From a virus, in IMG/VR virus record IMGVR_UViG_3300042924_003416, positions 1 through 64,000 of that record: a DNA stretch of 64,000 nt; one strand, given 5' to 3'. The notes below the pieces were generated by a model. The model searched no databases, was not told the DNA's origin, and was given only the letters and a program-made list of their open reading frames with translations. How positions within the stretch are numbered: position 1 is the first letter of the stretch; every line of letters starts with the position of its first letter. A program made the translations under genes and the position numbers. This document shows, one piece after another, positions 4,552-37,438 of this stretch.

Positions 4552-5166
4552 ATGGAAGCAAAACCAAGATCTTTAAAAAGACCAAATAGTAATGTTGTAG
4601 GATTAGAAAACCAACATATGGATATTTCTAAACCTAGTGAAGGAGCTACAACAGAAGTTCCAACAACTAAAACAAAGAATCCTTTACTAGATGATTCATG
4701 TGCTAGTTATCTTAACTATAGAATACAACAGGAGGAATATTCAGCAAGAATATATCTTTCAATGTCTATGTGGTTAAATAATGAAGGTTACATGGGTGCA
4801 GCTGCACTATGGAGAACATATTCTGATGAAGAAATGAAACATGCTGATATAGCACGAAAGTATATGTTATCATTTGGTATTCAACCAGCAACTCCTAGAT
4901 TAGATCAACCTAAACAAACATTTTCAGGTCTTCCTGAAATCATTAAACTTTCATTTGAACATGAGATAGAAGTTTCTAAACAAATTAAAGAAATGGCTAA
5001 TCATGCATTATCTGATGGAGATCATATGCTGTATGAACTATGTCTTGCTTATCTTAAAGAACAAGTTGAAGAACATGATAAGACTCAAACTTGGATGGAT
5101 AAATTAGAAGCATTTGGTACAGATAAGATTGCTCTTAGGTTACTTGATAACGAAATGGCAGGATAA
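4552..5166 (+). CDS. ftnA: Ferritin (non-heme, FtnA-like) with about 44-aa N-terminal extension
   Basis: Ferroxidase-centre motifs are intact: IQQEEYS..IY, DEEMKHA, EHEIEVS, KEQVEEH. Confidence 0.88.
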   Translation: MEAKPRSLKRPNSNVVGLENQHMDISKPSEGATTEVPTTKTKNPLLDDSCASYLNYRIQQEEYSARIYLSMSMWLNNEGYMGAAALWRTYSDEEMKHADIARKYMLSFGIQPATPRLDQPKQTFSGLPEIIKLSFEHEIEVSKQIKEMANHALSDGDHMLYELCLAYLKEQVEEHDKTQTWMDKLEAFGTDKIALRLLDNEMAG

Positions 5167-12103: not shown

Positions 12104-12145
12104 TAAATAATAATTGTATATATGTTTAATTTAAAATAAAAAAAA

Positions 12146-13531: not shown

Positions 13532-13537
13532 AAAGAA

Positions 13538-13562
13538 GTTACAGGTTGTTGGTTTCTGTGAC
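13538..13562 (+). other. RNA hairpin with UUGUUGGUU loop in 3' UTR
   Basis: GTTACAG(G)/(T)CTGTGAC stem with G-U pairs, directly upstream of the terminator. Confidence 0.45.
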
Positions 13563-13572
13563 AACAAGGCAT

Positions 13573-13603
13573 AACCCTCACACTTGTGGGGGTTTTGTTT
13601 TTT
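13573..13603 (+). terminator. Rho-independent terminator
   Basis: AACCCTCAC-ACTT-GTGGGGGTT followed by TTGTTTTTT. Confidence 0.8.
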
Positions 13604-13611
13604 AATTACAT

Positions 13612-13643
13612 TTGTTAATGTCATTTATTTTTAGTATATTAAT
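13612..13643 (+). promoter_or_regulatory. Putative promoter (TTGTTA-17 nt-TATATT) abutting the ATG
   Basis: TTTAGTATATTAAT motif lies immediately after a terminator. Confidence 0.55.
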
Positions 13644-14225
13644 ATGAAGGAATTTAAAAAACCTGATGTAAAAGCTTCTAGGTATAGACCAGAAGTTAGC
13701 ACTATTTTGAACAAAGAGTTCTTTGATAATTTTAAAAAAACACATCCTAGATATAAGGATATTGATAATAAAATACTTAGAAAGATAATTAAAAGATTTA
13801 ATCAAGTATTATATCAAACAGTTATTGATACTAGAGATGGTGTTCAGTTACCAGAACAAATAGGTTGGCTATTTATAGGAACATGTCAAAGAAGCAAAAA
13901 AGATAATGTTGACTATGCTAAGTCTAATAAATATGGTGTTACTGTAACTAATAACAATTGGGAAACTGATGGTAAGTTAGCTAAAATATTCTTTAGTAAC
14001 TATGCACCAAAACACAAAATTAAGAATAGAGAATTTTGGGGTTTTACTGCATCTAGAGAATTTAAAAGAACCGTTGCAAAACTATATCCAGAAAATTGGA
14101 ATATGTATGTTCAAGTGTTACCCGGATCAAAAATTGATAAAGTATATAATAGTGCTATGTACAAAGACTACTTAAACAGAGTAAATAAAGTTGCTTTAAA
14201 AAGCTATAATGAATTTGACATATGA
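13644..14225 (+). CDS. IHF/HU-like DNA-binding protein (crAss IHF-like)
   Basis: IIKRFNQVLYQTVI..DGVQLPEQIGWLFI and FTASREFKRTV follow the HU/IHF pattern; the position before tail genes is typical of crAss-like phages. Confidence 0.6.
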   Translation: MKEFKKPDVKASRYRPEVSTILNKEFFDNFKKTHPRYKDIDNKILRKIIKRFNQVLYQTVIDTRDGVQLPEQIGWLFIGTCQRSKKDNVDYAKSNKYGVTVTNNNWETDGKLAKIFFSNYAPKHKIKNREFWGFTASREFKRTVAKLYPENWNMYVQVLPGSKIDKVYNSAMYKDYLNRVNKVALKSYNEFDI

Positions 14226-14884
14226 CAACAATTGGTGAAGCAATATCAAGAGTAAGGAATACCCTTAAAGCTGTTAAGGAGGATCCTTTTCTTACAGATA
14301 GGACTATATACTATTCTTTAACAAAGTATGGTCAAACTCTTCTTAAGAGAGAAGACAATCAATTTAGATTGATGAAGATAAGTTCTATTTTTAAAGTGCT
14401 TCCGTATGTTGAACTTATTGATGTAGATAAAGTAGAGGCTGGTTGTATTGGTGTATATTCAGGATGTTACTTTAAAAGATCTAAAGATAAACTACCAACT
14501 ATATTTGATGGAGCTATGGGACCTATCATACGTACAGTATCTTCTATAGATGGTGGTATAGAAATGTTTAGGACAGATCCTGGTACTTGGGTTTCTATAA
14601 CTAAGTCGACAACATTTAAGTATAATAAGAGACCTTACTTCTGGTATCTTAATGGTTACTTATATTGTCCTAATATAGATTGGGATGCAATTAGAGTAGA
14701 AGCTGTTTTTGAAGGTGCTATAGAATCTTGTGATACTGATGCATGTCAAATAAGACAAGATGATCCTTTACCTTTTCCAGAATATTTATTTTCTGAAATA
14801 GAGCAATTTGTAGTAAAAGAATTAACCATGGCTATGCAGGTACCAACTGATGGACCTGATGATAGTCAAAATGCACTTAGATAA
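14222..14884 (+). CDS. Putative tail ring protein, 220 aa
   Basis: ATGA overlap with the previous gene; CYFKRSKDKLP, YFWYLNGYLY and VEAVFE patterns of crAss-like ring proteins; synteny. Confidence 0.55.
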   Translation: MTTIGEAISRVRNTLKAVKEDPFLTDRTIYYSLTKYGQTLLKREDNQFRLMKISSIFKVLPYVELIDVDKVEAGCIGVYSGCYFKRSKDKLPTIFDGAMGPIIRTVSSIDGGIEMFRTDPGTWVSITKSTTFKYNKRPYFWYLNGYLYCPNIDWDAIRVEAVFEGAIESCDTDACQIRQDDPLPFPEYLFSEIEQFVVKELTMAMQVPTDGPDDSQNALR

Positions 14885-15930
14885 TGGACTTTAATTACAC
14901 ACTAAAATATAGAACATTTGACCAGTTGCTGGAAGATGTTACTATTGACTTAAATACATTTGCTCTTGAAAATATGATTGAGCCTCAACAGTTAATTAAA
15001 GTAACTCGTAAGGTTAACTATCAATTAGGATTGAGAATAAATCAAACTAAAGAAGTTGTGTTAGATGTTTGTCACCATAAGGTAAAACTTCCTGATGACT
15101 TTTATACATTTAACTTTGCAATGATATGTGGAGAGTTTAAAGAAGTTGTTGGTTATGATGGTATGGCCGGAGGAACTAATATTCAAGAAGTACCATATAG
15201 AGAAGCACCAAGTACTGTTAATACATGTGCTCCTGAAACAGTAAACTGTAGAACATGTAATTCAAATCCATGTAATCATACAGCAGCCTGTGAACTTAAT
15301 CACCCTATAACAGATCCTATACCCACTGCATATGATCCTAATAATCCTTACGGTAATACATGTATTGCTCCAAGAGTATTCATGAACTGCAAGGGTGAAA
15401 AATGGGAACTAATACAAGTCATTAATCCTAGTCTTACAAGAGTTTCTACTTATCTTAAACCGTTAAGAATGAAAGCAAGTCAAGAGATTGAATGTGACTG
15501 TCCAAATCTTTATCATAACACAGCTGATGAAGGATGGATTAAAAACGGATTTTTAAATACAACATTTGAAAGTGGTAAAGTATATTTAAATTATCAAGGT
15601 GACTTGTCTGATGATAACGGTAACTTAATGGTTCCTGATCATGAACTTTTAAATGAGTATTATGAATATGCATTAAAACAAAGAATCTTTGAAAATTTAT
15701 TTATAAATGGTGAAGATGTTTCACAAAGAATGCAGTTAATTGAAGCAAGACTTAAAGAGGCAAGAACTAATGCACTTAGTTTAGTTAATACACCAAACTT
15801 TAAAGAGATGGAACAAATTTGGTGGACTAATAGAAAAGCTATGTATGGTAAGTACTATTACATGTTTATGAGTCATTCTCCAAATAATCCTTACTTAAGA
15901 AGATATTCTTCAAACAATAGAATTATCTAG
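14884..15930 (+). CDS. Putative tail tubular / ring-1 protein, 348 aa, with Cys-rich insert
   Basis: VKLPDDF, FESGKVYLNY and DDNGNLMVPDH patterns; lies directly before the muzzle gene as in crAss-like phages. Confidence 0.65.
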   Translation: MDFNYTLKYRTFDQLLEDVTIDLNTFALENMIEPQQLIKVTRKVNYQLGLRINQTKEVVLDVCHHKVKLPDDFYTFNFAMICGEFKEVVGYDGMAGGTNIQEVPYREAPSTVNTCAPETVNCRTCNSNPCNHTAACELNHPITDPIPTAYDPNNPYGNTCIAPRVFMNCKGEKWELIQVINPSLTRVSTYLKPLRMKASQEIECDCPNLYHNTADEGWIKNGFLNTTFESGKVYLNYQGDLSDDNGNLMVPDHELLNEYYEYALKQRIFENLFINGEDVSQRMQLIEARLKEARTNALSLVNTPNFKEMEQIWWTNRKAMYGKYYYMFMSHSPNNPYLRRYSSNNRII

Positions 15931-15932
15931 TT

Positions 15933-18900
15933 ATGGCAAAAGATCAAGGTTTACAAGATACGTCTAAGATTATTACTAATTCTTTTACTAAAGGATTGAA
16001 TAAAGATTCTGATCCTTCATTTGTACAAGAAGGAATGTGGACACATGCAATCAATGTAGTTAACAATACTATTGAAGGTGACGTAGGTACACTATCTAAT
16101 GAAACATCAAATATTCTGTGTGCTCAAGCTGGTAAAACAATGCCTCCAATAGCAACTCATAAATATATCATTGGAGCTATTTATTTGTACTCAGATAAAT
16201 GGATAATTCTTACAGCTGGTCATTCTACTACAGGTCAAAGAATTACTTCTGAAATAGGTCTTCTTGAAGAAGATGTATGTAGATATAGAGAGATTGTGCA
16301 AGCTCCTTGTTTAAACTTTGATAAAAGATATATTATATCAGGAGCTTCCAGAGAAAAAGAAGATTGTTCATGGCAAGTATATTGGTCAGATGGATTTAAT
16401 CCTGATAGAACTTTAAATATTGGAGATCCACAAACATGGCCTACATTAGACTATCAATGGTTAGGTGGTTCTGATATGAACTATTATTCTAATGGAACCG
16501 TTATTGATTTTCTTTGGCCAGGTGTTTCTTGGAATGAAAGAGTAACAGTACCTGATCCATGTGAATTTATTTCATATGTAAACTCACTAGATTGTGATGC
16601 AACAAGACTTGCTAGACTAATGAACACACCATGTCTTAATTTAATTTTAGGGCAATCTGGAGGTACACTTGCTAATGGAACTTATTTTGCACTTATTGCA
16701 TATACAATAAAAGGTCAAAGAGTAACAGATTATTTTTCACAAAGTAACTATCAATTTATTTATACAGTAAATGATTTAGAAGGTTCATTAACATTAGAAG
16801 TTAATGCGGATAGTGAAAACTTTGATGAATTTGTTTTAGTACTTGTTGAAGCAACAAATCAACAAACTGTTGCAACACAAATGGGTTTTTATTCTACTAA
16901 TACTACTATAATTGCTATAGATCAAATTAATCCTAGTAATGTAAAAATACCATTAGAACAATTACCAATTCAAACTCCTGTATTTGAAACATCTGATCAA
17001 ATGACTGATGTTAATGGTTATCTTTTAAGAGTTGGTCCAAAGTCTAAATTTGATTTTAACTATCAACCACTTGCAAATATGATTAAAGCAAGATGGGCTA
17101 GTGTTGAATATCCTGCTGATTATTATATCAATGGTGGTAATAAAACTAATTATCTTAGAGATGAGGTTTATACTTTTTATATAAGATGGGTATACAACAC
17201 AGGAGATAAGTCTGCTTCATATCATATACCAGGTAGAGCACCAAGAAACTTTCAAATTCCAGGAGGTTCCATATTACCTGAAAATGCAGATTTTACTATA
17301 GTTCATGATAAAAATGAATTAGCAACTGATGACAAAGTATTTGAAGTATATAACACAGCTACTCAGTTATCATATCCAACTCTAGTACCAAATGCTACAC
17401 AAAATCCATTAGGTCAATGGGTTATGGATGATGGTGGTGTATTACTTGCTGTTGGAGAAATGGGTTATTGGCAATCTACAGAAAAGTATCCTGACAATAG
17501 ACCTGACATATGGAATCCAAGTACATATTGTTGGACTGGTTTTGATGGTAAAAGTGGTGCATATGATCTTTGTGGAAAAAATATTAGGCATCATAAATTT
17601 CCAGAAAATTTTATTGCTAATGATAATTCTACAAGTGCATTACATTTTAGACCTAATCCCAATCCTGCAACATCAGGTAGTGAGTTTAGTATAAGATTAA
17701 TGGGTGTATATTTTGAAAATATAATAATACCTAAAGACAATGATGGAAATGATATCCCAGGTATTGTAGGTTATGAAATTTTAAGAGGATCTAGAGAAGG
17801 TAATAAGACTATTATTGCTAAAGGAATGGTTAACAACTTTAGAACATTTAAATTAAGAGGATCATTAGCACAAAACAGAACAGGGTTATATGCTAACTAT
17901 CCTTATAATACTATTAAACCAATTGGACATAGTAATACCCCATCGAATCATAATTACCAATACAATGATCCTTATATAAAAAATGATGATGCAAATAATG
18001 ATGTAGTAAATCAAGATATACCTACAGATATATTTACATTCCATTCTCCGGATACAATGTTCAGGACTCCGTTTCTTTCTACTACAGAGTTTAAATTATA
18101 TGGAACATTAAGTGGTTATGCAGATATGGCATTCCAAGAACCTAATGGTCATCCTAAATGGAAGTTGCTTTCTAACTATGTTGTTCTTCCAATGATTATT
18201 GCAGGTGTAGCTGAAGCTATCATATCTATGTTAGGTAAAAGAACAGTAAATGAACCAATTATAAATTCATATACAGAACAACTTAGAGGAACAGGTGGTA
18301 CTGGTGCAATTAATCTTAGTTTCGGTCCAACTGGTTCAGGAACATTTGCAGGAGGTAATAGTACACCTGGAACAGGAGGACAAATTGAGGATTCTCTTCC
18401 ACAAAATAATGCTCTAATTGGTATAAGTAATCAAATAACTACTTATAATAGTTTTATAAACTCATATTATTCTAGTGGTAATGCATTAACTGATGCACTT
18501 ACAGCTGTTGCATTTGGATATAGTAATACAGCATACAGTAATCAAATGAGTAGTTTAATAGGTGTTGTAAATGGTTTTTCAGAAGATGCTGGTATACCAA
18601 ATTTATTATCACTTGCTGGAACAATTGAGTTTCCTAAATGGGCATACTTAGATCCTTTTACTAGATCTTTAGGAGCATTAAATCAACTTGCATTTTACTT
18701 TTCAGAAGGAGCAGATATAACATTAAAAGTTTTTTATGCTCTTACACCATACAGACAATATGGATTACAATTGTTGTCACATGGTTTTTATAGTAATATG
18801 ACTAGAATATCTTCTACAGAACTATCAAGATTTAAAATTGAGACTAGTTTTTATATGAGAGATAATATTCAAGATGTACCAAAGTATCAAGATGCTACAT

Positions 18901-21488
18901 CACTTACATATTATAACTATAGTATTAATAATCTTAAACGATCAGATGCAGTAGTAGTTAGAACAAAATCAGGACCTTATTATAATCTAGCATTTCCTAA
19001 TGGAATAAATACAGGACCTCATTTAATAACTTCTGGTTTTCAAGATAAATCATTAGTAACACTTGGAACTGTTGTACAAAATAACTCAGACCCTGCTTTT
19101 CTTAGTAGTACTAATCTTCCTGACTTTGATAATAATGATAAAGTTAAACCATTTAGTTTACAAATTGCAAGTCATTATGGTGGATTAAAAGGTAGAGTTA
19201 GAAATCAATATGGTCAATTAGGAACTGAATTTCAAATTGCCATTAGTCCATGTGAACAGCAATTACCTAAGATGTCAGTAACAGATTGGACATGTCCTAC
19301 AGATAATATACTTTATACTTTTAAAACAATAAAATCAACTCCTTTATTTTTTGGAGGGGATACTTATATAAATCGTTACACTGAAAAAAATAACATGATG
19401 TTCTTTTATGATTGGTTATATGGACAACCTGATGGTTTTGAATATAACTATTATTTAAGAAGCATGATACCTCAAGCTAGATTTAAAGTAAATAGTATAA
19501 ACTATGATGTAAGTGATTTAGCTGAACTATTTAATTTTAGTGCACCTGCTGTTCCAGGTACAGGAGCTTTTCCTGGTAGATTTTATAATCTAGATTATTT
19601 TGTACCATTTTCACTTGGTCTTAGAAAATATAATTATACAAATGATACCAAAGGTGGTATTCCAGGTATATTTCCTTTTACAAGTTTTTTTGAACAAGAA
19701 AAAGGTTTGTGGTCAGTAAGAGAAGCATATTTTTATTTAGCAAATTCAGGTATAAGAGATTTCTTTGTTGAATCTGAAGTACTTGTAGACTTTAGAAAAC
19801 AAAGTACTAGAGAAGGTGGTAAACATTATGATCCGTATAGATACACAGATTATCCTGCTATGTTTGATATGAATCCAAACATCATGGGTAGATTAAGTGA
19901 ATATCTATATGATTATTCTTTAAGTGTATCTAAATTATATAATCAATATTTTTCTTCTGGAAATCTTCAATCAAGATATTATGATCCTAAAGTAGCTAAG
20001 TTATGTTACAAGTATTATCCTGATAGAATTATTTATTCACTACCTCAACAAGATGAGGCAATAAAAGATAGTTGGTTTATTTACTTAATTAATAATTATA
20101 AAGAATTTAAAGGCCAAATCTCTGGAGTTAAAGCAATTAATAAAAGTGGTTTATTTATAACATTTAAAAATGAAAGCCCATTAATGTATCAGGGTGTTGA
20201 TACTCTTGAAACAGATCTAAATACTAAGATTACAATTGGAGATGGTGGTTTATTTTCACAACCACAACAAGCTGTTACAAATGCAGACAAAGCATATGAG
20301 TATGGTTCTTCACAAAATAGATTATCAGTTATTTCTACTCCTGTAGGAATATTCTATATGTCTCAAAATCAAGGACGTGTATTTACTTATGGACAAGGAT
20401 TACAAGAAATATCTCAAGCAGGATTAAAATGGTGGTTTATATTATACATGCCATACAAACTTACTCAAGATTTTCCTGACTACCCATGGCAAGATAATCC
20501 AGTAGCAGGTATTGGTTGTCAATCAATTTATGATAGTTCAAGTTCAATACTTTATTTTACAAAAAAAGATTTTAAACTTAAAGACCAATATAAAAATAGA
20601 GTTACTTATAGACCTATTAATGCAGATGGTTCTGGTGATGACTTTATTTTAGATAATAATCAAAATGCAAGATATAATTTAGGTGATCCATTTTTATTTG
20701 AAGATTCATCATGGACATTAAGCTATGACCCTAAACAACAATATTGGATTAGTTTTCATGACTGGCATCCTGATTTAGTTATACCTACTAAAGATATTTT
20801 CTTAACCAGTAAAAAAGATAGCATATGGAAACATAACTTTATCTGTGATGGTTTTTGTAATTTCTATGGGCAGCAATACGGATTTGAAATTGAGTTTCCA
20901 ATTGTAACTGGTCAGTCTGTTATGACTACTAGATCATTTGAATATATACTTGAAGCTTACAGAAGAAAAGGAAATAGTTGTATAGATCAACATCATGTAC
21001 TTGACTATAATTTTGATAAAGCTGTAGTATATAATTCAGAACAAGTTTCCGGATATCTTAATTTAAATTTGTATCCTAAGAACAATATAAATGAATCATT
21101 ACAATACCCTAGGTTAGGTGCTAACTTAGCTTCTTATGATATTCTTTTCTCTAAAGAAGAACAAAAATATAGATTTAATCAATTCTGGGATATAACAAAA
21201 GATAGAGATGAGTTTCCAATAGGTTCTGATTATCCACCTACTGGACCAGTAATACCTGGTACTACAATTCTACAAGGTAATTATTCTTCAGAAAATACAT
21301 GGATTACATCTTCAGATGGATATACTAGAATTCTTAATCCAGCTAACATGGATTATAATAAGTCAGAATTTCAAAGAAAGAAATTTAGGCATTACTTAAA
21401 TTTCTTAACTTTAAGACGTGAACAATGTAATGATGTAAACATGATAGTTAAAATGTCAAATAGTAAAAATCAATTTTCCCCTAGGTGA
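15933..21488 (+). CDS. Tail stabilisation / muzzle protein, 1851 aa
   Basis: N-terminal FTKGLNKD..., VYWSDGFNPDR, LRDEVYTFYI, FGGDTYI and WTLSYD..WISFHDW motifs are typical of crAss-like muzzle (P22 gp10-like) proteins. Confidence 0.75.
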   Translation: MAKDQGLQDTSKIITNSFTKGLNKDSDPSFVQEGMWTHAINVVNNTIEGDVGTLSNETSNILCAQAGKTMPPIATHKYIIGAIYLYSDKWIILTAGHSTTGQRITSEIGLLEEDVCRYREIVQAPCLNFDKRYIISGASREKEDCSWQVYWSDGFNPDRTLNIGDPQTWPTLDYQWLGGSDMNYYSNGTVIDFLWPGVSWNERVTVPDPCEFISYVNSLDCDATRLARLMNTPCLNLILGQSGGTLANGTYFALIAYTIKGQRVTDYFSQSNYQFIYTVNDLEGSLTLEVNADSENFDEFVLVLVEATNQQTVATQMGFYSTNTTIIAIDQINPSNVKIPLEQLPIQTPVFETSDQMTDVNGYLLRVGPKSKFDFNYQPLANMIKARWASVEYPADYYINGGNKTNYLRDEVYTFYIRWVYNTGDKSASYHIPGRAPRNFQIPGGSILPENADFTIVHDKNELATDDKVFEVYNTATQLSYPTLVPNATQNPLGQWVMDDGGVLLAVGEMGYWQSTEKYPDNRPDIWNPSTYCWTGFDGKSGAYDLCGKNIRHHKFPENFIANDNSTSALHFRPNPNPATSGSEFSIRLMGVYFENIIIPKDNDGNDIPGIVGYEILRGSREGNKTIIAKGMVNNFRTFKLRGSLAQNRTGLYANYPYNTIKPIGHSNTPSNHNYQYNDPYIKNDDANNDVVNQDIPTDIFTFHSPDTMFRTPFLSTTEFKLYGTLSGYADMAFQEPNGHPKWKLLSNYVVLPMIIAGVAEAIISMLGKRTVNEPIINSYTEQLRGTGGTGAINLSFGPTGSGTFAGGNSTPGTGGQIEDSLPQNNALIGISNQITTYNSFINSYYSSGNALTDALTAVAFGYSNTAYSNQMSSLIGVVNGFSEDAGIPNLLSLAGTIEFPKWAYLDPFTRSLGALNQLAFYFSEGADITLKVFYALTPYRQYGLQLLSHGFYSNMTRISSTELSRFKIETSFYMRDNIQDVPKYQDATSLTYYNYSINNLKRSDAVVVRTKSGPYYNLAFPNGINTGPHLITSGFQDKSLVTLGTVVQNNSDPAFLSSTNLPDFDNNDKVKPFSLQIASHYGGLKGRVRNQYGQLGTEFQIAISPCEQQLPKMSVTDWTCPTDNILYTFKTIKSTPLFFGGDTYINRYTEKNNMMFFYDWLYGQPDGFEYNYYLRSMIPQARFKVNSINYDVSDLAELFNFSAPAVPGTGAFPGRFYNLDYFVPFSLGLRKYNYTNDTKGGIPGIFPFTSFFEQEKGLWSVREAYFYLANSGIRDFFVESEVLVDFRKQSTREGGKHYDPYRYTDYPAMFDMNPNIMGRLSEYLYDYSLSVSKLYNQYFSSGNLQSRYYDPKVAKLCYKYYPDRIIYSLPQQDEAIKDSWFIYLINNYKEFKGQISGVKAINKSGLFITFKNESPLMYQGVDTLETDLNTKITIGDGGLFSQPQQAVTNADKAYEYGSSQNRLSVISTPVGIFYMSQNQGRVFTYGQGLQEISQAGLKWWFILYMPYKLTQDFPDYPWQDNPVAGIGCQSIYDSSSSILYFTKKDFKLKDQYKNRVTYRPINADGSGDDFILDNNQNARYNLGDPFLFEDSSWTLSYDPKQQYWISFHDWHPDLVIPTKDIFLTSKKDSIWKHNFICDGFCNFYGQQYGFEIEFPIVTGQSVMTTRSFEYILEAYRRKGNSCIDQHHVLDYNFDKAVVYNSEQVSGYLNLNLYPKNNINESLQYPRLGANLASYDILFSKEEQKYRFNQFWDITKDRDEFPIGSDYPPTGPVIPGTTILQGNYSSENTWITSSDGYTRILNPANMDYNKSEFQRKKFRHYLNFLTLRREQCNDVNMIVKMSNSKNQFSPR

Positions 21489-24343
21489 TGTATAATAAAA
21501 AAGTACTTATAGATTCTCTTAAGAAGTTAGGAAGTGCAAAAGCTCCAACTCAAAAGAAAGATATTATTGTGGGTTCAAATAATCCTGCACAGATGTTATC
21601 TATGAAAAAAGGAGGTTCTTCTGTAGATAAGAAGTTGAGTGTAAAAAAATCTAATATACAAGGTAAAGGTTTATTTATTGATCAACCCATTAGAAAAGGA
21701 GAAATCATTGGTTTAGCTCATCTTAATAATCAAGCTACTCCTGTAGTAGGTAAATACCATAATCACTCAGAAGATAGTCCTACTGCAGTAAACATATCTA
21801 AAGGAAATAAAAGATATTTAGTAGCTGCTAGAGATTTACCTGCCGGTACTGAAATTACTACTAACTATAGATTACAACCTGAGTTAGAACAACCTGAAGA
21901 CTTTATGCAAAAAGGAGGAATGACTCCTCAGAAAGATGGTTATAGAACTTATTCACCATTTAAAAATCTTCCTTTTATTGATGTAGAAACAGACACTATT
22001 GATACAGACAATATAGTATATGATTTACAATTGAGGGCTAATAATGGAGTTACTAAAAATGTACAAAAAAATACAGGCTTACATAAAATTCCAGGAGCAA
22101 CTGTTATAAGAGAAATTCCTATGGGTAGAAAAGGAGGATCTGCTCCTAAACTTCCTAAAAAGAAAAACTCTAAAGGATACTCAAGAAGTCTTGAAGCAAC
22201 AAATAGATTATTTGCAGAACATCCATTCTTTGCTCAATCAAAATCTAGAAAGAATAAAATATATGATCCTAATTCAAAGTACTTCCAATTTGGTGGTATG
22301 TTTACTGAAAAAGGAGCTAATGTATATTTTAATCCAACATACATGAATAACTTTACAGGTGGTACTAATTCATATGAAAAAAATATGCTTGGTTCATACC
22401 GTACAGGTTTTTCTCCTGTTGTTGGTATAGAAGGTTCATTAAGTAAAAGTAGAAGAGCTGATGAAGAAAAGGGAAGAGGTTGGTTATATAATGCATATGC
22501 CGGACTTAATCCTAATGCAATGAAAGAAGGTAACTATACTCCTTCTGCAGGTTTAAGTTTTGATTTTGAAAATTCACCACAAGATAGAGTCTTTAGACCT
22601 TTTGCTCAAATAGGTGCTGACTATAATCCTGATACTGGTCTTAATGCTGGAGCAACAACTGGTGCTAGATTTCCTTTTACACCTTATGGAAATAAAAGAA
22701 TTAAACCTGGATATGCAATAGGTCATTTAGATATATATGGTGGTATTAGAGGTGGTTATGGTAAAATGAAAGCTGATGGTGCAGGTCCTTCAGGAGGTTT
22801 AGCATATGGTGCAAGAGTTCATGGTAAATATATGCCTGAAAGAAAATCAGTTCTTGGTAAACTGATGGGTAAAGGTGCTTATTTTTATGGTGATGCAGGA
22901 ATACAGTTTGATCCTCAAAAAGGTCAACTAAGTCAGAAAATGAAAGATTATACTATTCCTTCTGGAGCGGTTGATTATTATGGTAATGCAGCAACAGCTA
23001 GTGGAAGTGATCAAGATTCAGGTCTTAAATTTGGTAATACTATTTATGCAAATGTTGGTGTCAAAAAAGAACTTGATGATATTAAGTTTAAAAAAGATGA
23101 CAGAGCAAGAAAAATTCAAGAGATTGAAGATAATGAAAAAAGAGCATTTCAGGAAAATGAAATAAAACAAGTAATAGAAAAACCTAAAAAAGAATGTCCT
23201 GAAGGAGAAGAAAGACATTGTGCTGATTGTCCTTGTGAACCAATAGAAAGAGTAAGTCATCCAAGATGGTTGCAAGAAGGTGGTGAGTATATTGAAACAG
23301 AACTTACTCCAGAAGAAATAGAACAGTATGCTAAAGGAGGGTATATCATAGAAGATATTTCTATACCTTCATTACCTAAAGCTCAATTGGGTAAAATTAT
23401 AAAAAGTACAAAGAATATAGTATTTCCACCAACTCCAGATCAAAAATTTCTTACTAATTATATATCAAATAATTTTGGCCCTCATGTTACTTCTCAACAT
23501 TCAGCAGATATTGCAAGAAGATTAGCAAGAGAACAATATCAACGTGCTGTACTAGATGCTCAACAGGCAGCACTGTTTAATGCAAGTAATATAGATATAT
23601 CTACACTACCTCAACAACGTGTTGCTGATTTACAAAATTTAGTTACACCAGCTATTCAAAGTAAAATAAATAAAGTTAACTTACATGAAGCAGAAGACTT
23701 ATTAAAAACTTTAGATCCAAGTGAACTTGATAAATACATTGATTACAGACCATTTAGAATTTATACACCTTCAGGTAGTTTAGCACTTCATCAAAATACA
23801 GATAATTTAAAAGATAACTTATTTTCTTTTAATGTATTTATGAATAAACCTAGAGAAGCTGGATTAGCATTTAATTATGCAAATAAGTTTTTTCCATATA
23901 AGAATCCATCAATTTTAGAAAAGAATAGTTTGAGTTTAGATTCATTTAACATGTTAGCTAACATGGGTCGTAGACCAGAATGGGATATACAATTTGATGA
24001 TATGATTGATATGAATGCTTTAGCTCGTCATAGTAAATTATTTGAAGGATTACCTTCTGTAGGTAGGATAGGTGCTGGTCATTTTGATAAAGCTACTGGT
24101 GAAGAGATGTTAAGAAGGTTAAATGCTATGATTGCTGAAAAAGGTTTTTCTGAAAAAGCAGACTGGCAATACACTCCAATTTCAGGAGATAACTTAGGTA
24201 TCCATAAATTTATGTTACCTAACTATAAAATAACTAGAAAATACAGTGAAGGTGGAGATTTTGAATATGAACTTGGAGATGAAGTAGATGAAACTACTAT
24301 GCAAGAATTAGAAAAATTAGGTTATACATTTGAACAAATATAG
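21488..24343 (+). CDS. Modular putative cargo protein with SET domain and beta-barrel-like domain
   Basis: TGATG overlap start. SET motifs GKGLF/KGEII, HNHS and AARDLPAGTEITTNY. Segments are delimited by xxxGG motifs. Confidence 0.75.
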   Translation: MYNKKVLIDSLKKLGSAKAPTQKKDIIVGSNNPAQMLSMKKGGSSVDKKLSVKKSNIQGKGLFIDQPIRKGEIIGLAHLNNQATPVVGKYHNHSEDSPTAVNISKGNKRYLVAARDLPAGTEITTNYRLQPELEQPEDFMQKGGMTPQKDGYRTYSPFKNLPFIDVETDTIDTDNIVYDLQLRANNGVTKNVQKNTGLHKIPGATVIREIPMGRKGGSAPKLPKKKNSKGYSRSLEATNRLFAEHPFFAQSKSRKNKIYDPNSKYFQFGGMFTEKGANVYFNPTYMNNFTGGTNSYEKNMLGSYRTGFSPVVGIEGSLSKSRRADEEKGRGWLYNAYAGLNPNAMKEGNYTPSAGLSFDFENSPQDRVFRPFAQIGADYNPDTGLNAGATTGARFPFTPYGNKRIKPGYAIGHLDIYGGIRGGYGKMKADGAGPSGGLAYGARVHGKYMPERKSVLGKLMGKGAYFYGDAGIQFDPQKGQLSQKMKDYTIPSGAVDYYGNAATASGSDQDSGLKFGNTIYANVGVKKELDDIKFKKDDRARKIQEIEDNEKRAFQENEIKQVIEKPKKECPEGEERHCADCPCEPIERVSHPRWLQEGGEYIETELTPEEIEQYAKGGYIIEDISIPSLPKAQLGKIIKSTKNIVFPPTPDQKFLTNYISNNFGPHVTSQHSADIARRLAREQYQRAVLDAQQAALFNASNIDISTLPQQRVADLQNLVTPAIQSKINKVNLHEAEDLLKTLDPSELDKYIDYRPFRIYTPSGSLALHQNTDNLKDNLFSFNVFMNKPREAGLAFNYANKFFPYKNPSILEKNSLSLDSFNMLANMGRRPEWDIQFDDMIDMNALARHSKLFEGLPSVGRIGAGHFDKATGEEMLRRLNAMIAEKGFSEKADWQYTPISGDNLGIHKFMLPNYKITRKYSEGGDFEYELGDEVDETTMQELEKLGYTFEQI

Positions 24344-24345
24344 TC

Positions 24346-27300
24346 ATGGCTAAATATAGAATAACAAGCATTCCTGCTAATTTACCACAAGCTCAAGATG
24401 GAGGATCTTTTTGGAAAAAAAAATATAATGTTGCTAAGAGTAAAAAACTTAAAAGAAATAAAACAAATACTTCTAAAAGATCTGCAGGAAACTTTTCTAA
24501 TGAAGTAGGAGAATCTATCTCACAAGACCTACCTATGGTAGAAGTCCAAGGTGTTGATCAACCTTCTTACTGGAATCAAATGTCAAGTGATGTTGTACAA
24601 GGTATAGAATGCCCTCCAGGAAAAGAAAACTTTGAAGGAAATTGTTTAACTGAAGATGAAATTCTTAGTATTCTAGATGCTAGAACTGCAGAGATGAAAC
24701 AAAAGAATTTTGATAGACGTGTAGAACAAGGTTTTAAAAAATCAAATGTTTTTGCAGATTCAGAATATGCTTCAAAAATGTTAGGTCGTTATATTTCTGC
24801 TAGGAATCAACAAGAACAAGACTATGATAATTATGCAAATAAGTACTATGATACTTTTAAAAAATCTAAAAAAAGTGATAAAATACAACCGTTTAAAAAG
24901 TTTTCTGCAGAAGAACTAGATCAATTACAAGATGTAGTTGATCAAGAAGGTAATGTAGTTATTGATGAAACAACAGGACAACCACTGCAACAAGCTAAAA
25001 TTGATGCATTTAAAAATAACTTTTTAATTAATAAAACAAAAGATGGTTTTTATGAACTGTATCCAAAAGATATTGTTAGAGATAGAATTTTACAAAGTGG
25101 TTTTAACGAAGAACAATTTAAAAATTTTTGGGGATTAGATCCAGAACAAGTAAAGGAACAGGTAGGTGATATGATAGGTACGGCTAATGAAATCTATAAT
25201 CAAAGATTACAACAACGTATTATTAAAACAGCCATTGATAAAAATATATCTGTTGAAGATGCAATTAAAACAATACCTAAATCTGAAGGTACTCAAACTG
25301 GATTAACAAATAGATTTAAAAAATCTACTCAAAAAATAATTGATGACACTTTTGATATCTATACAAATAGTATGTTAGAGTCTATGTTGTATGATCCTGA
25401 TGTTGCAAAAAAAGATGAAGATGTATTTTATTCAGAAGATCCTAAAACAGCATGGGAAAATAAATATCATGCAGGTGATTTAAAATATATTTCTGACAAA
25501 CAAAGAAAAGGTCAAAAAGCATATGATGAAGCAATTAAAAATTTTAGTAATATAGGTAGTAGTGGTGCATCAGATGAATATTATCAAAATCAAGGTAGGT
25601 ATGATGACAGGATGGCACAACAAAGATTAAAAAATCAAGGTGTACAAAAAGCAATAAATTTATCAAGAGCTGAATCGGCAAGACAAGGAGCACAAGATAA
25701 AAAGTTTAATGATGCATTTGGTCAGTATTTAAGTAATCAAGGAACATCTTATCAAAAAGAATTATTAGGAAAAGCATTTGATAAACTTAGAGCTGACCCT
25801 AAAGCAAAAATAAATTTTTTAAGAGATATTGAAAAATATCCAGACTTGGTTATGGGGGATGTTTTTAATTTAACAGATGATGAGTCTGGTAAAACATATT
25901 CTGATTTATATTCAGAACGTCTTAATGATAGCTATATGAATAGTTTAAAGGCAAGACAAAATACATTTAAAGAAGGTAGTTATAAACCTGAACTTACAAC
26001 AGGTAATAAAATATTTGACTATCTTAGACATCCTTTTCATGCAGCATATTATGCAATGCACCCAACACAAGATATGCATGGTAATTGGAATATTGATTAT
26101 GATACAAGACTAAAGCTTGAAAAAGAAAAAGGTATAAATTTAGGTACTATGGATAAAGTACAAGGATTTAATCCTATGTCAGTTTTAAATTTGACACCAC
26201 TTCAAGCTCTTAATCCTTTTAAAATAGGTAGTAATTTAAGACAGGGATATGATAAAGGAAATTTTATAGGAGCATTAGGTGATGAAATTGTTGATATTGG
26301 TACATCAGTTGGAGCTGCAAAAGGTTTTAATGCATTATCAGGAAGTGGTTTAGGATTAACAAAGGGAGCAGGAACTTTAGTAAGTAGTATATTTAATCCC
26401 TTTAGTGATATAGGATATGCTTTAAAAGCTGGAAAAAATTTAGATAATGCAACTGATTATATTAAAAAAGGTGATTATAAAAATGCAGCTTGGGAAGGTT
26501 TAGAAGGTGGATTAAATGCTATACCACTTATAGGCTTACCAAAGTATTTAAAAGGTTTTAATAGATTTAATGATGCAACAAGTGGATTTAATTTTAATAG
26601 AACATTTAATAATGCAAATCAATTAAATTTTAATAGCCCTAACTTACTTGGAACACAACAAATACCTAAATATAATATATTGAATAAAGATGGACAACTC
26701 ATTCGTAATCAATATAAAAATGGAGGGTCTCTTCCTAAAGCACAATTAGGTAAAATAGTTAGTAGTTTAAAATTATTGGAACCTGTAGAAGTATATGGTA
26801 AACAATTTTTAAGATCACATTATAATCCTTTATCTTATCCTGTTAAACTTGCTGGTTCAAAAGTAGCAGGTTTAAGTTCAGGTGCATTTAGACAACCTGG
26901 AGAAATTGCAAAAGCATTACTTGCAAAAGAAGGTGATTTAACATACAAAGGTCAAAATACAGTTATAGTAAGACCTGGAAGTGAAATTGAAAAAATATAT
27001 ACAGAAGGTGGTAGAGATTTAGTAAAAAATTATATGTTAGGTCAGACAAAAGGATTGCAAGAATTAATGTATGATTTTGAAAAAGATCCTGGACTTAACC
27101 AAGCAATAGATTATTATGGACCATTAAAAGCATATGAATTATATTCTAAAATACCACATGGTGAAAACTTAGGTATACAAGATTTTATGAAACAGGCTTC
27201 AGGTTTTAGTTTTAATAAAGATAAAGTTATTGATGATCTTATGAGTGGGTTTGATCAAAATCTTAATATATTTGATCAATCAAAAAATACTAGATTACTT

Positions 27301-28791
27301 TTTGATTTAAAAAGAGATTTGGGTGAAGAAGCAGGTAATGCAAAATATAGTGAAATTGCAAAAGATAATTTAAAATATTTGTTTGATCAGTATGGTAATG
27401 ACGTTATACCTTTTCAAGCAAATGTAGATCCTATGCATACAAAAGATTTAATACTAAGAGGTAATCCCATAATGCCGCTAGATGATATTGGAGGTCATAT
27501 GGGATTTTTAAAAAAAGGTCCTGATGGTAATTATGATTTTACAACTAGAGATTTGTGGAGTTTTAGACCTAGTGCTTATGGTAAAAGATATGCTGGAGAT
27601 AGTACTGCAAAAGCTTTATTTAAAGATGCTCAAGTTCAGTTGATGGATACTTTTGGTAAACCATTTATTCTACATCAAACTAATCCTATTAAATTTAAAG
27701 AAGGTGGTGATTTACCAAAAGCTAAGATGGGTTGGCCTCCTGGAGGTTTTAGATCCCTAAGAAAAATTCCAACAGTATTTGGTAGAGAAGTTTACAGACC
27801 AAGCAGTACTATTTTTAACACAGGAATAAAAACAGGAAATATTCATGTTCCTAAAAAAATAGACTTTTTAAAAGAAACTGGACCAGAAATAGACGAACGT
27901 GTTAGAAGAAATTTAATATGGGATTTTGATGAGTATACTGGAGGAGATCCTGCTAACCTACCAGGAATATCAAGTTATATAGGTAGAGGTCTAGCATCTC
28001 CCACTGAATTAACAAAGTATTTAGGTGATTTTGATTTTAAACCTTTTTCAGATGGATGGCAAGTAAGAAATCAAATGATGAATGCATTTGATGGACCTCA
28101 ATGGGCAGCAGGTAAAAATGATTTTTTTACTGAATCTGAATTAATAAACCTTGTTAATCAACAAAGTGAATGGCAAAAAGCAAGAAATTCATTTGATGAT
28201 ATGTATCCTGAAAATCCTGCTATGGGAATTATGAATGCATTTAGTGGGGATAACAGTAGAGAAGAGTTATTTAGTAATCTTTACCCTAATGCATCTATGC
28301 CAAATTTTAGAAGTAAGTTTACAACACCAGAACAAGAAGCTTTATTACAACAAAATTTACCTTGGCAATATTCAGTAAGAGATAAAGGTATGCTTAATAG
28401 TTGGAAATTAAATCCTTTTCTTGCTGATACACTTAATGATAAAATTTTACCTTCATTTAAAAGACTAACAAACTTTAAAAAAGATTTAGCAGATGATAAT
28501 CATATGGTTGGAGAATATAGAGGAATGTTAGGTGTAAAATATGAAGATTGGAAAAATGCATCACCAGAACAAATTAGTAAATGGGCAAAAGAAATAAATA
28601 AAAAACTTTATAATAGAGATTTTAATCGTTATAAAAGTGATATAGAAAAACCATTTAAAGGAAGTGATGCATGGAATCAAATAACATCTCAACCAGGTTG
28701 GAAAAATAAAAATGGAGGTGTTGCTATGAAACTTACCAAAAAGGAAATAGACAAATATGTTCAAGGAGGATACATTGTAGAAGAAGAATAA
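24346..28791 (+). CDS. Modular putative cargo protein, 1481 aa
   Basis: Long ORF with a Gly/Ala-rich membrane-like segment and cassettes separated by GG-x-LPKAxxG. Confidence 0.7.
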   Translation: MAKYRITSIPANLPQAQDGGSFWKKKYNVAKSKKLKRNKTNTSKRSAGNFSNEVGESISQDLPMVEVQGVDQPSYWNQMSSDVVQGIECPPGKENFEGNCLTEDEILSILDARTAEMKQKNFDRRVEQGFKKSNVFADSEYASKMLGRYISARNQQEQDYDNYANKYYDTFKKSKKSDKIQPFKKFSAEELDQLQDVVDQEGNVVIDETTGQPLQQAKIDAFKNNFLINKTKDGFYELYPKDIVRDRILQSGFNEEQFKNFWGLDPEQVKEQVGDMIGTANEIYNQRLQQRIIKTAIDKNISVEDAIKTIPKSEGTQTGLTNRFKKSTQKIIDDTFDIYTNSMLESMLYDPDVAKKDEDVFYSEDPKTAWENKYHAGDLKYISDKQRKGQKAYDEAIKNFSNIGSSGASDEYYQNQGRYDDRMAQQRLKNQGVQKAINLSRAESARQGAQDKKFNDAFGQYLSNQGTSYQKELLGKAFDKLRADPKAKINFLRDIEKYPDLVMGDVFNLTDDESGKTYSDLYSERLNDSYMNSLKARQNTFKEGSYKPELTTGNKIFDYLRHPFHAAYYAMHPTQDMHGNWNIDYDTRLKLEKEKGINLGTMDKVQGFNPMSVLNLTPLQALNPFKIGSNLRQGYDKGNFIGALGDEIVDIGTSVGAAKGFNALSGSGLGLTKGAGTLVSSIFNPFSDIGYALKAGKNLDNATDYIKKGDYKNAAWEGLEGGLNAIPLIGLPKYLKGFNRFNDATSGFNFNRTFNNANQLNFNSPNLLGTQQIPKYNILNKDGQLIRNQYKNGGSLPKAQLGKIVSSLKLLEPVEVYGKQFLRSHYNPLSYPVKLAGSKVAGLSSGAFRQPGEIAKALLAKEGDLTYKGQNTVIVRPGSEIEKIYTEGGRDLVKNYMLGQTKGLQELMYDFEKDPGLNQAIDYYGPLKAYELYSKIPHGENLGIQDFMKQASGFSFNKDKVIDDLMSGFDQNLNIFDQSKNTRLLFDLKRDLGEEAGNAKYSEIAKDNLKYLFDQYGNDVIPFQANVDPMHTKDLILRGNPIMPLDDIGGHMGFLKKGPDGNYDFTTRDLWSFRPSAYGKRYAGDSTAKALFKDAQVQLMDTFGKPFILHQTNPIKFKEGGDLPKAKMGWPPGGFRSLRKIPTVFGREVYRPSSTIFNTGIKTGNIHVPKKIDFLKETGPEIDERVRRNLIWDFDEYTGGDPANLPGISSYIGRGLASPTELTKYLGDFDFKPFSDGWQVRNQMMNAFDGPQWAAGKNDFFTESELINLVNQQSEWQKARNSFDDMYPENPAMGIMNAFSGDNSREELFSNLYPNASMPNFRSKFTTPEQEALLQQNLPWQYSVRDKGMLNSWKLNPFLADTLNDKILPSFKRLTNFKKDLADDNHMVGEYRGMLGVKYEDWKNASPEQISKWAKEINKKLYNRDFNRYKSDIEKPFKGSDAWNQITSQPGWKNKNGGVAMKLTKKEIDKYVQGGYIVEEE

Positions 28792-28840
28792 ACTTTATAA
28801 GTTTATTGATTAAATTAAAATTTAGTATATTAGTATATAA
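28787..28840 (+). promoter_or_regulatory. Perfect palindrome AATAAACTT-TAT-AAGTTTATT followed by TTTAGTATATTAGTATA promoter-like motif
   Basis: 9-bp inverted repeat at 28787-28807; shared GTATATTA motif at 28825-28832. Confidence 0.5.
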
Positions 28841-28848
28841 CACATCTT

Positions 28849-31800
28849 ATGAAAAAATCAGTAAGAATAAGAAAAGCTCTTCCAGGTGAAAAACCTGGTT
28901 ACTATAATAAGACTGCAAAGTTTTTACAAAAAGCTCAAATGGGTATGCAAGTTGGTTCTCCAAGTATGGATCCTCAAAGATTAAATAAGGTATATGAGAA
29001 TGTATATATATCATTAAAACAGTCTACTCCTCCTGATGTAGTTTATAATGAACTTGTTACAGAATATGCTTTAGATCAGGATACTTCATTAAGTATTCTT
29101 AGAGCTGCTTTAGGTCAGTTATCTCAAGAAGGTTATTTTGATGAATCTGAATTAGAGGGTGAGAGTACATCTCAAAGTGAAGAAGAAACTCAAGAAGAAG
29201 ATACTTCTGCCCAAGAAGAACAACAAGCATCAGATGATGCAGAACAACAACAACTTGCTGAGTCATCTGAAGGTTATTATGATGATGAAGAAGCATTAAA
29301 CAATGACACATCCCATCTTGAAGATGAACAGTATGAGCAACAAGAAGCATTTAGATATGGTGGGTACTGGCAAGATGGTGGAGAAAGTGAAGAAGTATAT
29401 GATGAATCAGAGTATCAAGATGAAGAAAATTATTCTGATGAATCTGATACACGTGAAAATGTAGTTGATCAATATAATTATCCTGGACAATCAACAATGG
29501 AGAAACCTTTCTCTATAGAAGATTTAATGGCTATTACTCCAGGGATGCAAGGACAAGAAGCATTTCCAGATATATCAGCTTATTTAGGTGATTATCAACC
29601 TGTAGCAGATTCATATCAACCAGAGAATTATTTACCTCAAGCACAGTATGGTACTATTATTAAAGCTGCTAAAGCTGCTGCAGATGCACTTAAAGTAGAC
29701 CCTCCTATCTTAAGACAACCGTTTACTAACTTAAGTACTTTACGTAAGTACATACCTATTTCTACTCTTACAGGAGAAGCAGTAACTAAATTACCATTAA
29801 TTGGATCTAAACTTGCACCTAAATTAGCAACTACTTTTACTCAAAATAGAGATGAGTTGTTTAAAGTAATGCAGGGTCAGTCCCCTAAGACAGGTATATT
29901 TAGTCAAACTGGTAGTTATGCTGGTGGAGCTGATGGTAGTTTATCTGCTGATAGATTATTGTTGTATCAAGATGATGTATTTAATATTATTGATCAAATA
30001 GAAAATGGAGGACGTTCTGCTTTTCAATTTATGGATATTGATCCTGTTGCAAAAAATGATGGATTAATAAGTGGATTGTATCCATTAGATTCTAAAATTG
30101 TAAGTGGTGTTGATGATAATGGTTTTAAATTCTTTGAATTAAATAAAACATTTACTCCAGGTGAAAAATTACCATTTGGTACTTTACCTTCTAAAGCTAA
30201 AGAAGTTACATTTAAAAATAGATTCTATTATAAGACTGATGAGGCTGGTCAAGTACAAGTATTTGATTCTTTAGGTAATCCTTTATCTCAAGGTGCTCAA
30301 ACTAAATTTGAAGTTGCAAGACCTTTTGGAACAACTGTTTCAAGAACACTTACTGATCCAATACTAAGAAATTCTAATACACCATTTCCTAGTTTTAGAA
30401 CAGGATACGAAGGTGGAAGACTTACTGAAACTATGGGTGAAAAACCTATGACTTTTGCAGACATGGGTGTAAGAGGTAAGATTGGTAGAGGATTAGAAAC
30501 ATTTGGTTTTACTGGTTTAAATCTTCCTTTTAGAACAGGAGCTGATGCTATTCAAAAAGTTGACTATCCAGTATTTGGATATACTAATAAAGCTTTAGGA
30601 CCTAATGTAATAGATCCTGCTACTGAAGGATCTTATGCAAAAGATATTGCAAATGCAATGAACTATAAATATAGAGTTGGCCGTAATACATTACTTGGTC
30701 TTGGTGCTCTAGGTGCATTAGGTTATACAGGATATAATGCTTATAATAAATGTCAATGTGAAGATCCTCTTGCTCCAAACTATCAAATGAAAGATAAGTA
30801 TGATAACTGTCCTTGTGGTACTGATGTAGGTAGTAGGAGAACTTTAGATCCAACAGCTAATCCTTTTACTGAACAAGTTGATCCAAGATCTTTAACTATG
30901 CCTGATAGTATGCAATTTCTTATTCAAAAAGGAATTTATCCAAGTGCAGAAAATTATTACAGGTATCAAGATAGTAATGTTGTAAATCCAAATATGGAGA
31001 ACAGTATTCCTGCAGATGATTTTGCATATGGTGGTGCATTACCAAGAGCACAAAAAGGTCGTATTATTAAAGGTGTTGCAAAAACAATGAAAACTTTAAA
31101 AGCACAACCTACACCAAAAGGAGTAACCATACCAAAAAATATGTCTGACATTCCAATACCTAAATATAATGTAAAAGGTATGGATGCAAGAAAAGCATTT
31201 GAAGATGATTTAAGACTTGATCAAGATTTTATAGATTTTCAAAATAATGATCAATTTTTACAGTACAGTCCAGGTTTTCAAACTAACCAACAACGCTTAG
31301 ATTCTGAACCTCTTCGTGATTTCTTTAAATATGTAACTGGATATTCTGATCCTCTTGAAATAAAACAATTTTTAAATACCCCTGGTATAACAAAATATAA
31401 TAAATTTGGTGTCCCTTTTGCAACAAGAGATTTTAAAATGATGCAAACACCTTTTGAAGATCCTTTTAATCTTTTAGATGATGGTTTTAATATACCACCT
31501 TATCAAAAAGGAGGTATTTCAAAAAATCAGTTTATTAAAAAGTTTACTTCAATGTATCAAGAAGGTGGGGAAAAAGATCCAAAAGATCCTTCACTAGGTA
31601 AAGGAAAAAGGTTTGATACTCTTACTAATGATGTAGAAGCTAGAAAAGATATATTTAAAAGTAAACTTAAAAATAATTCTAATGTAGCTCTTACAGAAGA
31701 GATATATAAAAATGCTCAGAGTAATCCTCAGATTCTAAGCATGTTAATGCAAGATGGTCAAAAAGAAAATCTTGCAGAAAATGATAATATGCAAACAGCA

Positions 31801-33900: not shown

Positions 33901-33908
33901 CAATACCA

Positions 33909-37382: not shown

Positions 37383-37404
37383 ACTTTACAAGTTTATTAA
37401 ACTT
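37380..37404. repeat. TAAACTT-TAC-AAGTTTA-T-TAAACTT overlapping inverted repeats
   Basis: Same element as at 28789-28805. Confidence 0.5.
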
Positions 37405-37438
37405 AAAAAATTTTAATAGTTTTACACAAACATAAATT

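Follow-up and report, generated by a model that had tools for sequence, protein, structure and literature searches.

An uncultured crAss-like phage known from metagenomic sequence encodes, directly after its muzzle gene, a mosaic protein that carries a minimal SET domain. The window, meaning the whole stretch of DNA that was analysed, comprises positions 1 to 64,000 of IMG/VR record IMGVR_UViG_3300042924_003416 (linear, 85,773 bases, estimated to be 71% complete), and the gene is an open reading frame (ORF) of 951 residues on the + strand, from an ATG at 21488 to 24343. Residues 52–139 of its product almost certainly adopt a genuine SET fold, which is that of S-adenosylmethionine-dependent protein-lysine methyltransferases, and the module, present in one copy in the record, is very probably an optional, swappable cassette between two xxGG junctions. 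On balance, we favor as the best explanation that this stripped-down SET module rides on a protein at the C1 position of crassvirus cargo, and that it would be packed, ejected, and put to work methylating a host protein.

The initial annotation had placed a SET cassette at 21602–21919 between MKKGG and MQKGG, and all of the strings that it quoted are in frame where it put them. Counted from the ATG at 21488 (the ORF list begins one codon earlier, at a GTG at 21485), the N-terminal leader covers residues 1–43 (21488–21616) and ends in the MKKGG junction (residues 39–43, 21602–21616). Its pattern, MYNKK..AKAP..KKD, is common to SET-bearing and SET-less orthologues. LSVKKSNIQGKGLF follows at 21635–21676, IRKGEII at 21689–21709, NHS at 21761–21769, and AARDLPAGTEITTNY at 21824–21868. 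The MQKGG junction (residues 140–144, 21905–21919) closes the cassette; one junction is missing along with the cassette in SET-less orthologues. The cassette was correctly described as minimal, but the size given for it, about 80 residues, was too small: the match to Pfam SET, that of a cassette profile to vSET, an AlphaFold2 (AF2) model, Foldseek, and VIA-align outline a folded core of 88 residues, V52–F139 (21641–21904). Within the core, the GxG motif G59-K-G61 (21662–21670) aligns with GYG of vSET, N92-H93-S94 with NHS, and E122-I-T-T-N-Y127 (21851–21868) with EEITISY. The last is the equivalent of ELxF/YDY and includes the candidate catalytic tyrosine. The product of 21488–24343 is 100% identical to a database protein of 951 residues (P0001).

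Profile searches recover the SET family at several levels of sensitivity. Pfam SET (PF00856; curated cut-off of 22.4 bits), the check that the initial annotation had put forward, scores above the cut-off both on the whole ORF (23.9 bits) and on a 106-residue piece (31.1 bits, E = 3.3e-7). On the short variant of the cassette, the match spans positions 62–104 of the 105 in the model, which is the C-terminal half only; in a relative with the long variant (P0067), it spans positions 2–105 at 43.5 bits. A single-sequence phmmer search of the PDB yields 15 weak matches (E of 0.06–0.8), all to SET or PR domains. We also built a profile from 18 cassettes, that of the window and 17 from diverse homologues that are 30–70% identical to it. 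Its best PDB match is vSET of the chlorovirus PBCV-1 (1n3j, E = 1.2e-9), with profile positions 16–104 aligned to vSET residues 3–114, a range that takes in both halves of the domain. MLL1, EZH2, SETD8, NSD2, and ASH1L come next, and the best 60 of the 137 matches at E ≤ 1 are all SET enzymes. Many homologues are already tagged PF00856 in databases, the cassette matches PHROG 34170 (function unknown), and 30 of 30 matches by ESM-Atlas features are SET clusters; the three that were detailed are 99–102 residues long and 100% viral among members with a record. One other candidate domain, Pfam SAF, was rejected. It reaches 23.9 bits on the 106-residue piece over only 16 residues (71–86) and is below cut-off on the whole ORF, a partial match that we take to reflect a shared beta-clip hairpin.

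Predicted structure points to the same fold. The AF2 model, computed on the 18-cassette alignment, has a mean predicted local distance difference test (pLDDT) of 77.9, with block means of 88–94 for model residues 21–90 and 79 for residues 91–100. Values drop below 50 at both flanks, including the MKKGG junction and model residues 110–112, which cover the GG of MQKGG, consistent with both junctions being flexible linkers. Among 172 PDB matches of the model in Foldseek at E ≤ 1e-3, vSET ranks first (3kma_A, E = 2.2e-6; TM-score of 0.59 by query length and 0.66 by target length), and the best 50 are all SET or PR domains. In VIA-align, MLL1 (7u5v_A) superposes with a Z of 12.8 and a root-mean-square deviation of 1.5 Å over 84 residues at 26% identity, and vSET with a Z of 11.6 and 1.8 Å over 80 residues at 28% identity. 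The NHS loop and the C-terminal segment, which in SET domains is threaded through that loop in a knot-like way, both lie inside the range aligned to MLL1 (model residues 11–96). The initial annotation had staked its claim on the presence of a SET fold, and the model matches SET structures only, with Z values up to 12.8. Modeling of two cassette copies with S-adenosylmethionine (SAM) scored 0.00 against a mark of 0.42, a result that speaks neither for nor against self-association.

The motifs are strongly conserved. Among 231 proteins, 216 have the cassette, in 202 distinct versions, and in all 202 of these S55, G61, G75, H78, N92, H93, E122, Y127, and L133 are invariant. G88 (201 of 202), F139 (200), and A113 (197) are nearly so. 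G59 of the GxG, the SAM-binding motif I of SET domains, is retained in 170 of 202 cassettes, and position 94 of NHS is occupied by S in 150, N in 37, D in 10, and A in 2. The constraint on the GxG, NH, and E..Y signature argues for catalysis. The invariant H78 (21719–21721, in the motif IGLAH) is not known as a canonical catalytic or SAM-binding residue of SET domains; it might make up for the loss of SET-I. Measured between V52 and F139, the core has 87–90 residues in 158 of 202 cassettes and 94–102 residues in the other 44. It is shorter than vSET because the SET-I insert is nearly absent; hidden Markov model alignments put the deficit in this region at 21 residues relative to vSET and at more than 30 relative to MLL1. 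The SET-I region normally forms one wall of the substrate groove. Perhaps, we suspect, the module became this small so that it could pass through the tail.

Comparisons among orthologues show how the cassette comes and goes. When four SET-bearing and five SET-less orthologues are aligned, all have a leader of ∼93 residues that ends in ..YPQM(K/R)xGG and a basic module (..YSRSLEATN..) after the SET region, and a clean gap of ∼100 residues removes the SET domain along with one xxGG junction. The initial annotation had raised the question of whether orthologues lack exactly this cassette, and the indel answers it in the affirmative. The SET-less first-cargo ORFs that were examined show no trace of a SET domain in a relaxed search. 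In an alignment of 91 cassettes, most have a basic-residue-GG site a few residues after F139. We also retrieved 84 viral loci, using patterns from the window cassette or leader and three typed cassettes, so that proportions among them are not frequencies. In 25 of the 84 loci (22 distinct contigs), the order is ring protein 2, ring protein 1, muzzle, and SET, with the SET domain in the ORF that abuts the muzzle gene. Three loci have a muzzle gene only and one has neither muzzle nor SET. The SET domain occurs without a muzzle gene in view in 13 loci, one of which is cut by the end of its contig; the other 12 have it on proteins of 128–446 residues in other phage contexts.

The xxGG sites mark where similarity starts and stops. 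Of 565 BLASTP similarity boundaries between the 951-residue ORF and its homologues, 67% fall within 10 residues of a GG, compared with 21% expected from random placement, and none of 2,000 random placements reaches the observed value. Related phages reshuffle this mosaic protein junction by junction. Its own xxGG sites are at residues 42, 143, 216, 269, 598, 617, and 922. GG dipeptides as such are not significantly enriched in the ORF (11 observed versus 8.0 expected, z of 1.2). [FYMWAL]xxGG occurs at 6, 6, 12, and 6 sites in the first four cargo-position ORFs (21488–37382) and at 0–4 in each of eleven others that were counted. In phage crAss001, [FYM]xxGG is present at three sites in gp45 and four in gp47 and is absent from gp43, gp44, gp46, gp49, and gp50. 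Such sites may mark junctions or points of processing in crassvirus cargo generally. The five cargo ORFs have no HExxH that would point to a processing protease; two giant ORFs downstream have one each. Beyond the window, on the minus strand at ∼73350–75754 of the record (11351–13755 of retrieved locus L004), is a gene pair of the minus-strand module. One product weakly matches AAA_3 (MoxR-like) ATPases, and the other is a DUF2201_N metallopeptidase that also has a VWA-like DUF2201 domain, with scores of 64.5 and 59.7 bits. The pair is a possible processing protease, with no link to the GG junctions.

The SET gene, initially described as the first cargo gene, directly follows a crassvirus muzzle gene. 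Genes for tail ring protein 2 (14222–14884; CrAss_Ring_2, 80.6 bits), tail ring protein 1 (14884–15930; CrAss_Ring_1, 39.4 bits), and the muzzle protein (15933–21488, 1,851 residues; crAss_MUZ, 103.6 bits) precede it on the + strand, each above the Pfam cut-off of 27 bits. The muzzle protein also matches PHROG 37948 and 15100, annotated as "virion structural protein." The TGA of the muzzle gene and the ATG of the SET gene share one base (TGATG, 21486–21490), an overlap that suggests that the first cargo gene is translated in a way coupled to translation of the muzzle gene. Four more + strand genes in cargo position follow (24346–40636; products of 1,481, 1,683, 1,157, and 1,065 residues), the first three of which share the [FYM]xxGG style. 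Then come three giant genes, also on the + strand (40639–64000), that encode 2,490, 3,384, and 2,444 residues; the last extends to 65603, past the window. No protein in either group has a Pfam match above curated cut-offs; matches to SBDS_domain_II, CbiA, and FlxA on the giants or other cargo genes have E ≤ 0.01 and were rejected since all are below those cut-offs. The giants show weak similarity, one-to-one, to the RNA-polymerase-associated cargo proteins gp47, gp50, and gp49 of crAss001 (BLASTP E of 4e-8, 6e-13, and 1.5e-5, values that are generous because the database consisted of seven crAss001 proteins), and none of them has a DxDGD polymerase motif.

Gene order in crAss001 is tail protein gp43, muzzle protein gp44, gp45, gp46, and gp47, and thus the 951-residue protein holds the position of crassvirus cargo protein C1. 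Four genes after the muzzle homologue of Cellulophaga phage phi17:2 are annotated as tail protein or as (virion) structural proteins. Proteomics of Cellulophaga phages was reportedly described by Holmfeldt in 2013. According to the accessible text of the crAss001 paper, gp45, gp46, gp47, gp49, and gp50 were found in virions by mass spectrometry, and the N-terminal part of gp45 sits in the tail barrel, poised to exit first (PMC10172136). By analogy of position, the 951-residue protein is probably virion cargo.

Several other features of this region were recorded. At 3851–4546, there is a weak match to CrAss_Ring_3_4 (18.6 bits, below cut-off). Beside this gene, at 4552–5163 on the + strand, the virion module includes a ferritin-like protein (Ferritin, 88 bits; Rubrerythrin, 23.7 bits). 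The product of 2112–2621 (+) matches DUF6321, a family of unknown function, in its C-terminal half (72.8 bits).

Relatives of the protein and of its SET module are numerous. The whole ORF has 264 relatives at E ≤ 1e-3 among 5.8 billion proteins, and in 105 of the best 120 the cassette is present, at residue 2, 39, 90, ∼440, ∼480, or ∼580. Searched against 1.84 billion cluster representatives, the 18-cassette profile matches 203 at E ≤ 1e-30 and 928 at E ≤ 1e-10, making this mini-SET family a large one; the 7,415 proteins at E ≤ 1e-3 necessarily include ordinary SET proteins. Most of the best 150 matches are 500–2,400 residues long. In a Pfam scan of seven homologues, the SET domain is paired, above cut-offs, with a GH24 lysozyme (P0058, 26.2 bits), SLT (P0072, 38.7 bits), Amidase_2 (P0091, 58.8 bits), or ART-PolyVal (P0118, 50.1 bits). 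Weaker matches are to PG_binding_1 in P0058 and P0072 (20.4 and 20.5 bits, cut-off of 23) and to Phage_lysozyme2 in P0072, also below cut-off. The remaining three (P0059, P0067, and P0100) have only SET or DUF matches, with SET just below cut-off in P0059 and P0100. In the protein of the window, SET is the only enzyme module that Pfam recognizes. Wall hydrolases and ADP-ribosyltransferases are typical of ejected or injected phage proteins, as described in the accessible text on polyvalent proteins (PMC5512222).

In a set of 50,697 phage records, neither the whole protein (by tblastn) nor 10 kb of sequence (by megablast) had any match, and the cassette alone matched three records at E ≤ 1, one of Phage zth2-2 and two of Rhodoferax phage P26218. 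The protein of P26218 has no Pfam SET match. A pattern scan of prokaryote genomes found only three distant SET genes, 24–40% identical. Other architectures of the mini-SET were observed. It forms the C-terminal domain of short proteins of 246–310 residues in seven loci (L023–L026 and L029–L031), and in Phage zth2-2 (OL791268.1, ∼23190–24065) it is on a 292-residue protein (profile E of 2e-18) whose gene is ∼1.1 kb upstream of a T7-type portal gene. In L037–L039, it is on a protein of 446 residues with a weak N-terminal match to Pol-beta nucleotidyltransferase, and in L027 and L028 a 128-residue ORF has a partial match. Four metagenomic cluster representatives (P0121–P0124) have two SET modules each, arranged in tandem in three of them (residues ∼1–111 and 106–245) and at residues 1–112 and 310–438 in the fourth.

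We propose the following sequence of events. The cargo protein would be packed in the tail or capsid and, as proposed for cargo of crAss001 in the accessible text, would be pushed out ahead of the DNA in a partly unfolded state (PMC10172136). Once in the host, the mini-SET would refold, bind host SAM, and methylate lysines of a host protein, which would help early takeover. By analogy with vSET and the few characterized prokaryotic SET enzymes, the favored class of target would be a nucleoid-associated protein or a protein of transcription or translation; substrates have reportedly been described for SET proteins of Methanosarcina and Chlamydia. Taken by itself, the proposition that the ejected module is catalytically active on a host protein is plausible but tentative. 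More doubtful is an extended version, in which the mini-SET would be an injected effector, of a size that lets it thread the tail and fold again, and would methylate a nucleoid, transcription, translation, or defense protein of the host within the first moments of infection, the [FYM]xxGG motifs would serve for recombination and also be cut to set each cargo module free, and crAss-like phages would carry a shuffled, strain-specific toolkit of injected enzymes.

A number of observations weigh against methylation of a host protein by an injected cargo enzyme. The 951-residue protein has no detectable similarity to gp45 of crAss001 (best pairwise BLASTP E of 0.15), and so it is position alone that assigns it to the cargo. 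Homology to gp45 could be beyond reach, given that the muzzle protein itself is only 24–27% identical to those of its nearest cultured relatives; the nearest muzzle relatives are in Leptolyngbya phage Lbo-JY46, Cellulophaga phages phi17:2 and phi4:1, the FPSV phages of Flavobacterium psychrophilum, and gut phage csAssE-Sib. The cassette is dispensable, in that 42 of the 84 loci have a muzzle gene and an abutting related ORF with no SET at E < 1e-5, and none of four cultured relatives has it. Reduction of SET-I means that a complete lysine channel is not assured. Because bacteria lack histones, the analogy with vSET gives no target, and the 71%-complete record has no match to PF00216 that would point to an HU-like substrate of the phage's own.

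The module could also be an active enzyme that modifies proteins of the phage itself, in the producing cell or inside the particle, an alternative that we consider unlikely. Candidate substrates are modules rich in Lys within the cargo proteins that bear the cassette, among them the SAPKLPKKKNSK segment that follows it in many relatives, and methylation could tune their charge, packing, resistance to proteases, or refolding. In agreement with this, a conserved Lys-rich module directly follows the cassette in many homologues, SAM would be available in the cytoplasm during assembly, and cargo proteins of crAss001 are present in multiple copies at high local density, as stated in the accessible text (PMC10172136). 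However, SET-less orthologues keep the Lys-rich module, which therefore needs no methylation, and the cassette is also found on short proteins of 246–446 residues in unrelated phage contexts. An inactive SET fold, in which a small beta-clip domain would serve as a structural, docking, or binding element without methyl transfer, would be in keeping with the near absence of the SET-I wall, the variability of position 94 in the NHS motif, and the restriction of the Pfam match in the short variant to the C-terminal half of the model. But the long variant matches the full model, and the invariance of G61, N92, H93, E122, and Y127 in 202 of 202 cassettes, where the 17 sampled relatives are 30–70% identical to the cassette of the window, is hard to explain without catalysis, and we think it quite improbable that the domain is a pseudoenzyme.

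It is more improbable still, in our estimation, that the protein is never packaged and is instead a late cytoplasmic polyprotein, possibly cut at xxGG, whose SET domain works in the infected cell only. The assignment to cargo by position, the lack of detectable similarity to gp45, and the location of the xxGG junctions in low-confidence, probably flexible linkers that could be protease sites all leave room for it. Against this, the gene shares a strand with the muzzle gene before it and with the homologues of RNA-polymerase cargo after it, its start overlaps the muzzle stop, and the syntenic genes of phi17:2 are annotated as virion structural proteins. Homologues moreover carry peptidoglycan hydrolases, as would suit proteins that have to get through the envelope from the outside.

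If methylation of a host protein by ejected cargo is correct, crassvirus cargo, so far regarded as channel formers and RNA polymerase, would also hold a variable set of effectors. The cassette would contain the smallest natural SET core (87–90 residues) and inform the minimal needs of a SET enzyme. Natural phage pairs, one with and one without exactly this cassette, would provide a tractable handle on early infection by abundant phages that are hard to culture. Most known phage enzymes that are injected and modify the host are ADP-ribosyltransferases (T4 Alt), virion RNA polymerases, or anti-restriction proteins. In the full-text literature open to searching, no account was found of a phage particle that delivers protein-lysine methylation as a weapon. 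Nor was any found there of a SET domain in tailed-phage cargo, in line with the initial annotation, which knew of none. One paper merely lists ORF62 of phage Ps15 as a "SET domain protein." Mentions of "set" in the accessible text of the crAss001 and PhiSH19 papers refer to a "C2-set domain" and an "I-set domain," respectively, neither of which is SET.

Among known systems, vSET (A612L of PBCV-1; PDB 1N3J and 3KMA) is the best match to the cassette both by profile and by Foldseek, and like vSET the cassette is a bare SET core without pre- or post-SET zinc domains. vSET reportedly acts as a dimer, a finding credited to Wei and Zhou in 2010, and studies of it are said to include those of Manzur in 2003 and Mujtaba in 2008. 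In the accessible text of a review, vSET is described as encoded and packaged by a double-stranded DNA virus and, at 119 residues, is termed the smallest histone methyltransferase (PMC7019647). It is free-standing, belongs to a virus of eukaryotes, and methylates K27 of histone H3, whereas the cassette is embedded in a 951-residue mosaic of a tailed phage whose host has no histones, and its core of 87–90 residues has ∼21 fewer in SET-I. MLL1/KMT2A, EZH2, and SETD8, which have the highest structural Z-scores, share the GxG, NHS, and ELxF/YDY motifs with the cassette but, unlike it, have a long SET-I, pre- and post-SET regions, and partner subunits.

Its carrier protein resembles two other systems. 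As with gp45 of crAss001 (842 versus 951 residues), its gene is directly after the muzzle gene and before those of RNA-polymerase-associated giants, and gp45 likewise has three [FYM]xxGG sites. In the accessible text, gp45 is described as probably forming a channel and as having a predicted transmembrane helix, and no enzymatic domain is named for it there (PMC10172136). Polyvalent proteins of phages and conjugative elements, in the accessible text of Iyer, Burroughs, Anand, de Souza, and Aravind (2017, PMC5512222), are large mosaics of unrelated enzymatic modules, encoded alongside late or virion genes and presumed to enter the host together with the DNA. SET does not occur as a domain name in the main text of that paper, nor do "lysine" or "protein methyl," the full list of architectures lying outside it. 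One homologue joins ART-PolyVal with SET (P0118), and the protein of the window differs from polyvalent proteins in having only one recognizable enzyme module. A SET domain that is bare, viral, and packaged is already known from vSET; the one described here is smaller, fused to a larger protein, and encoded by a tailed phage.

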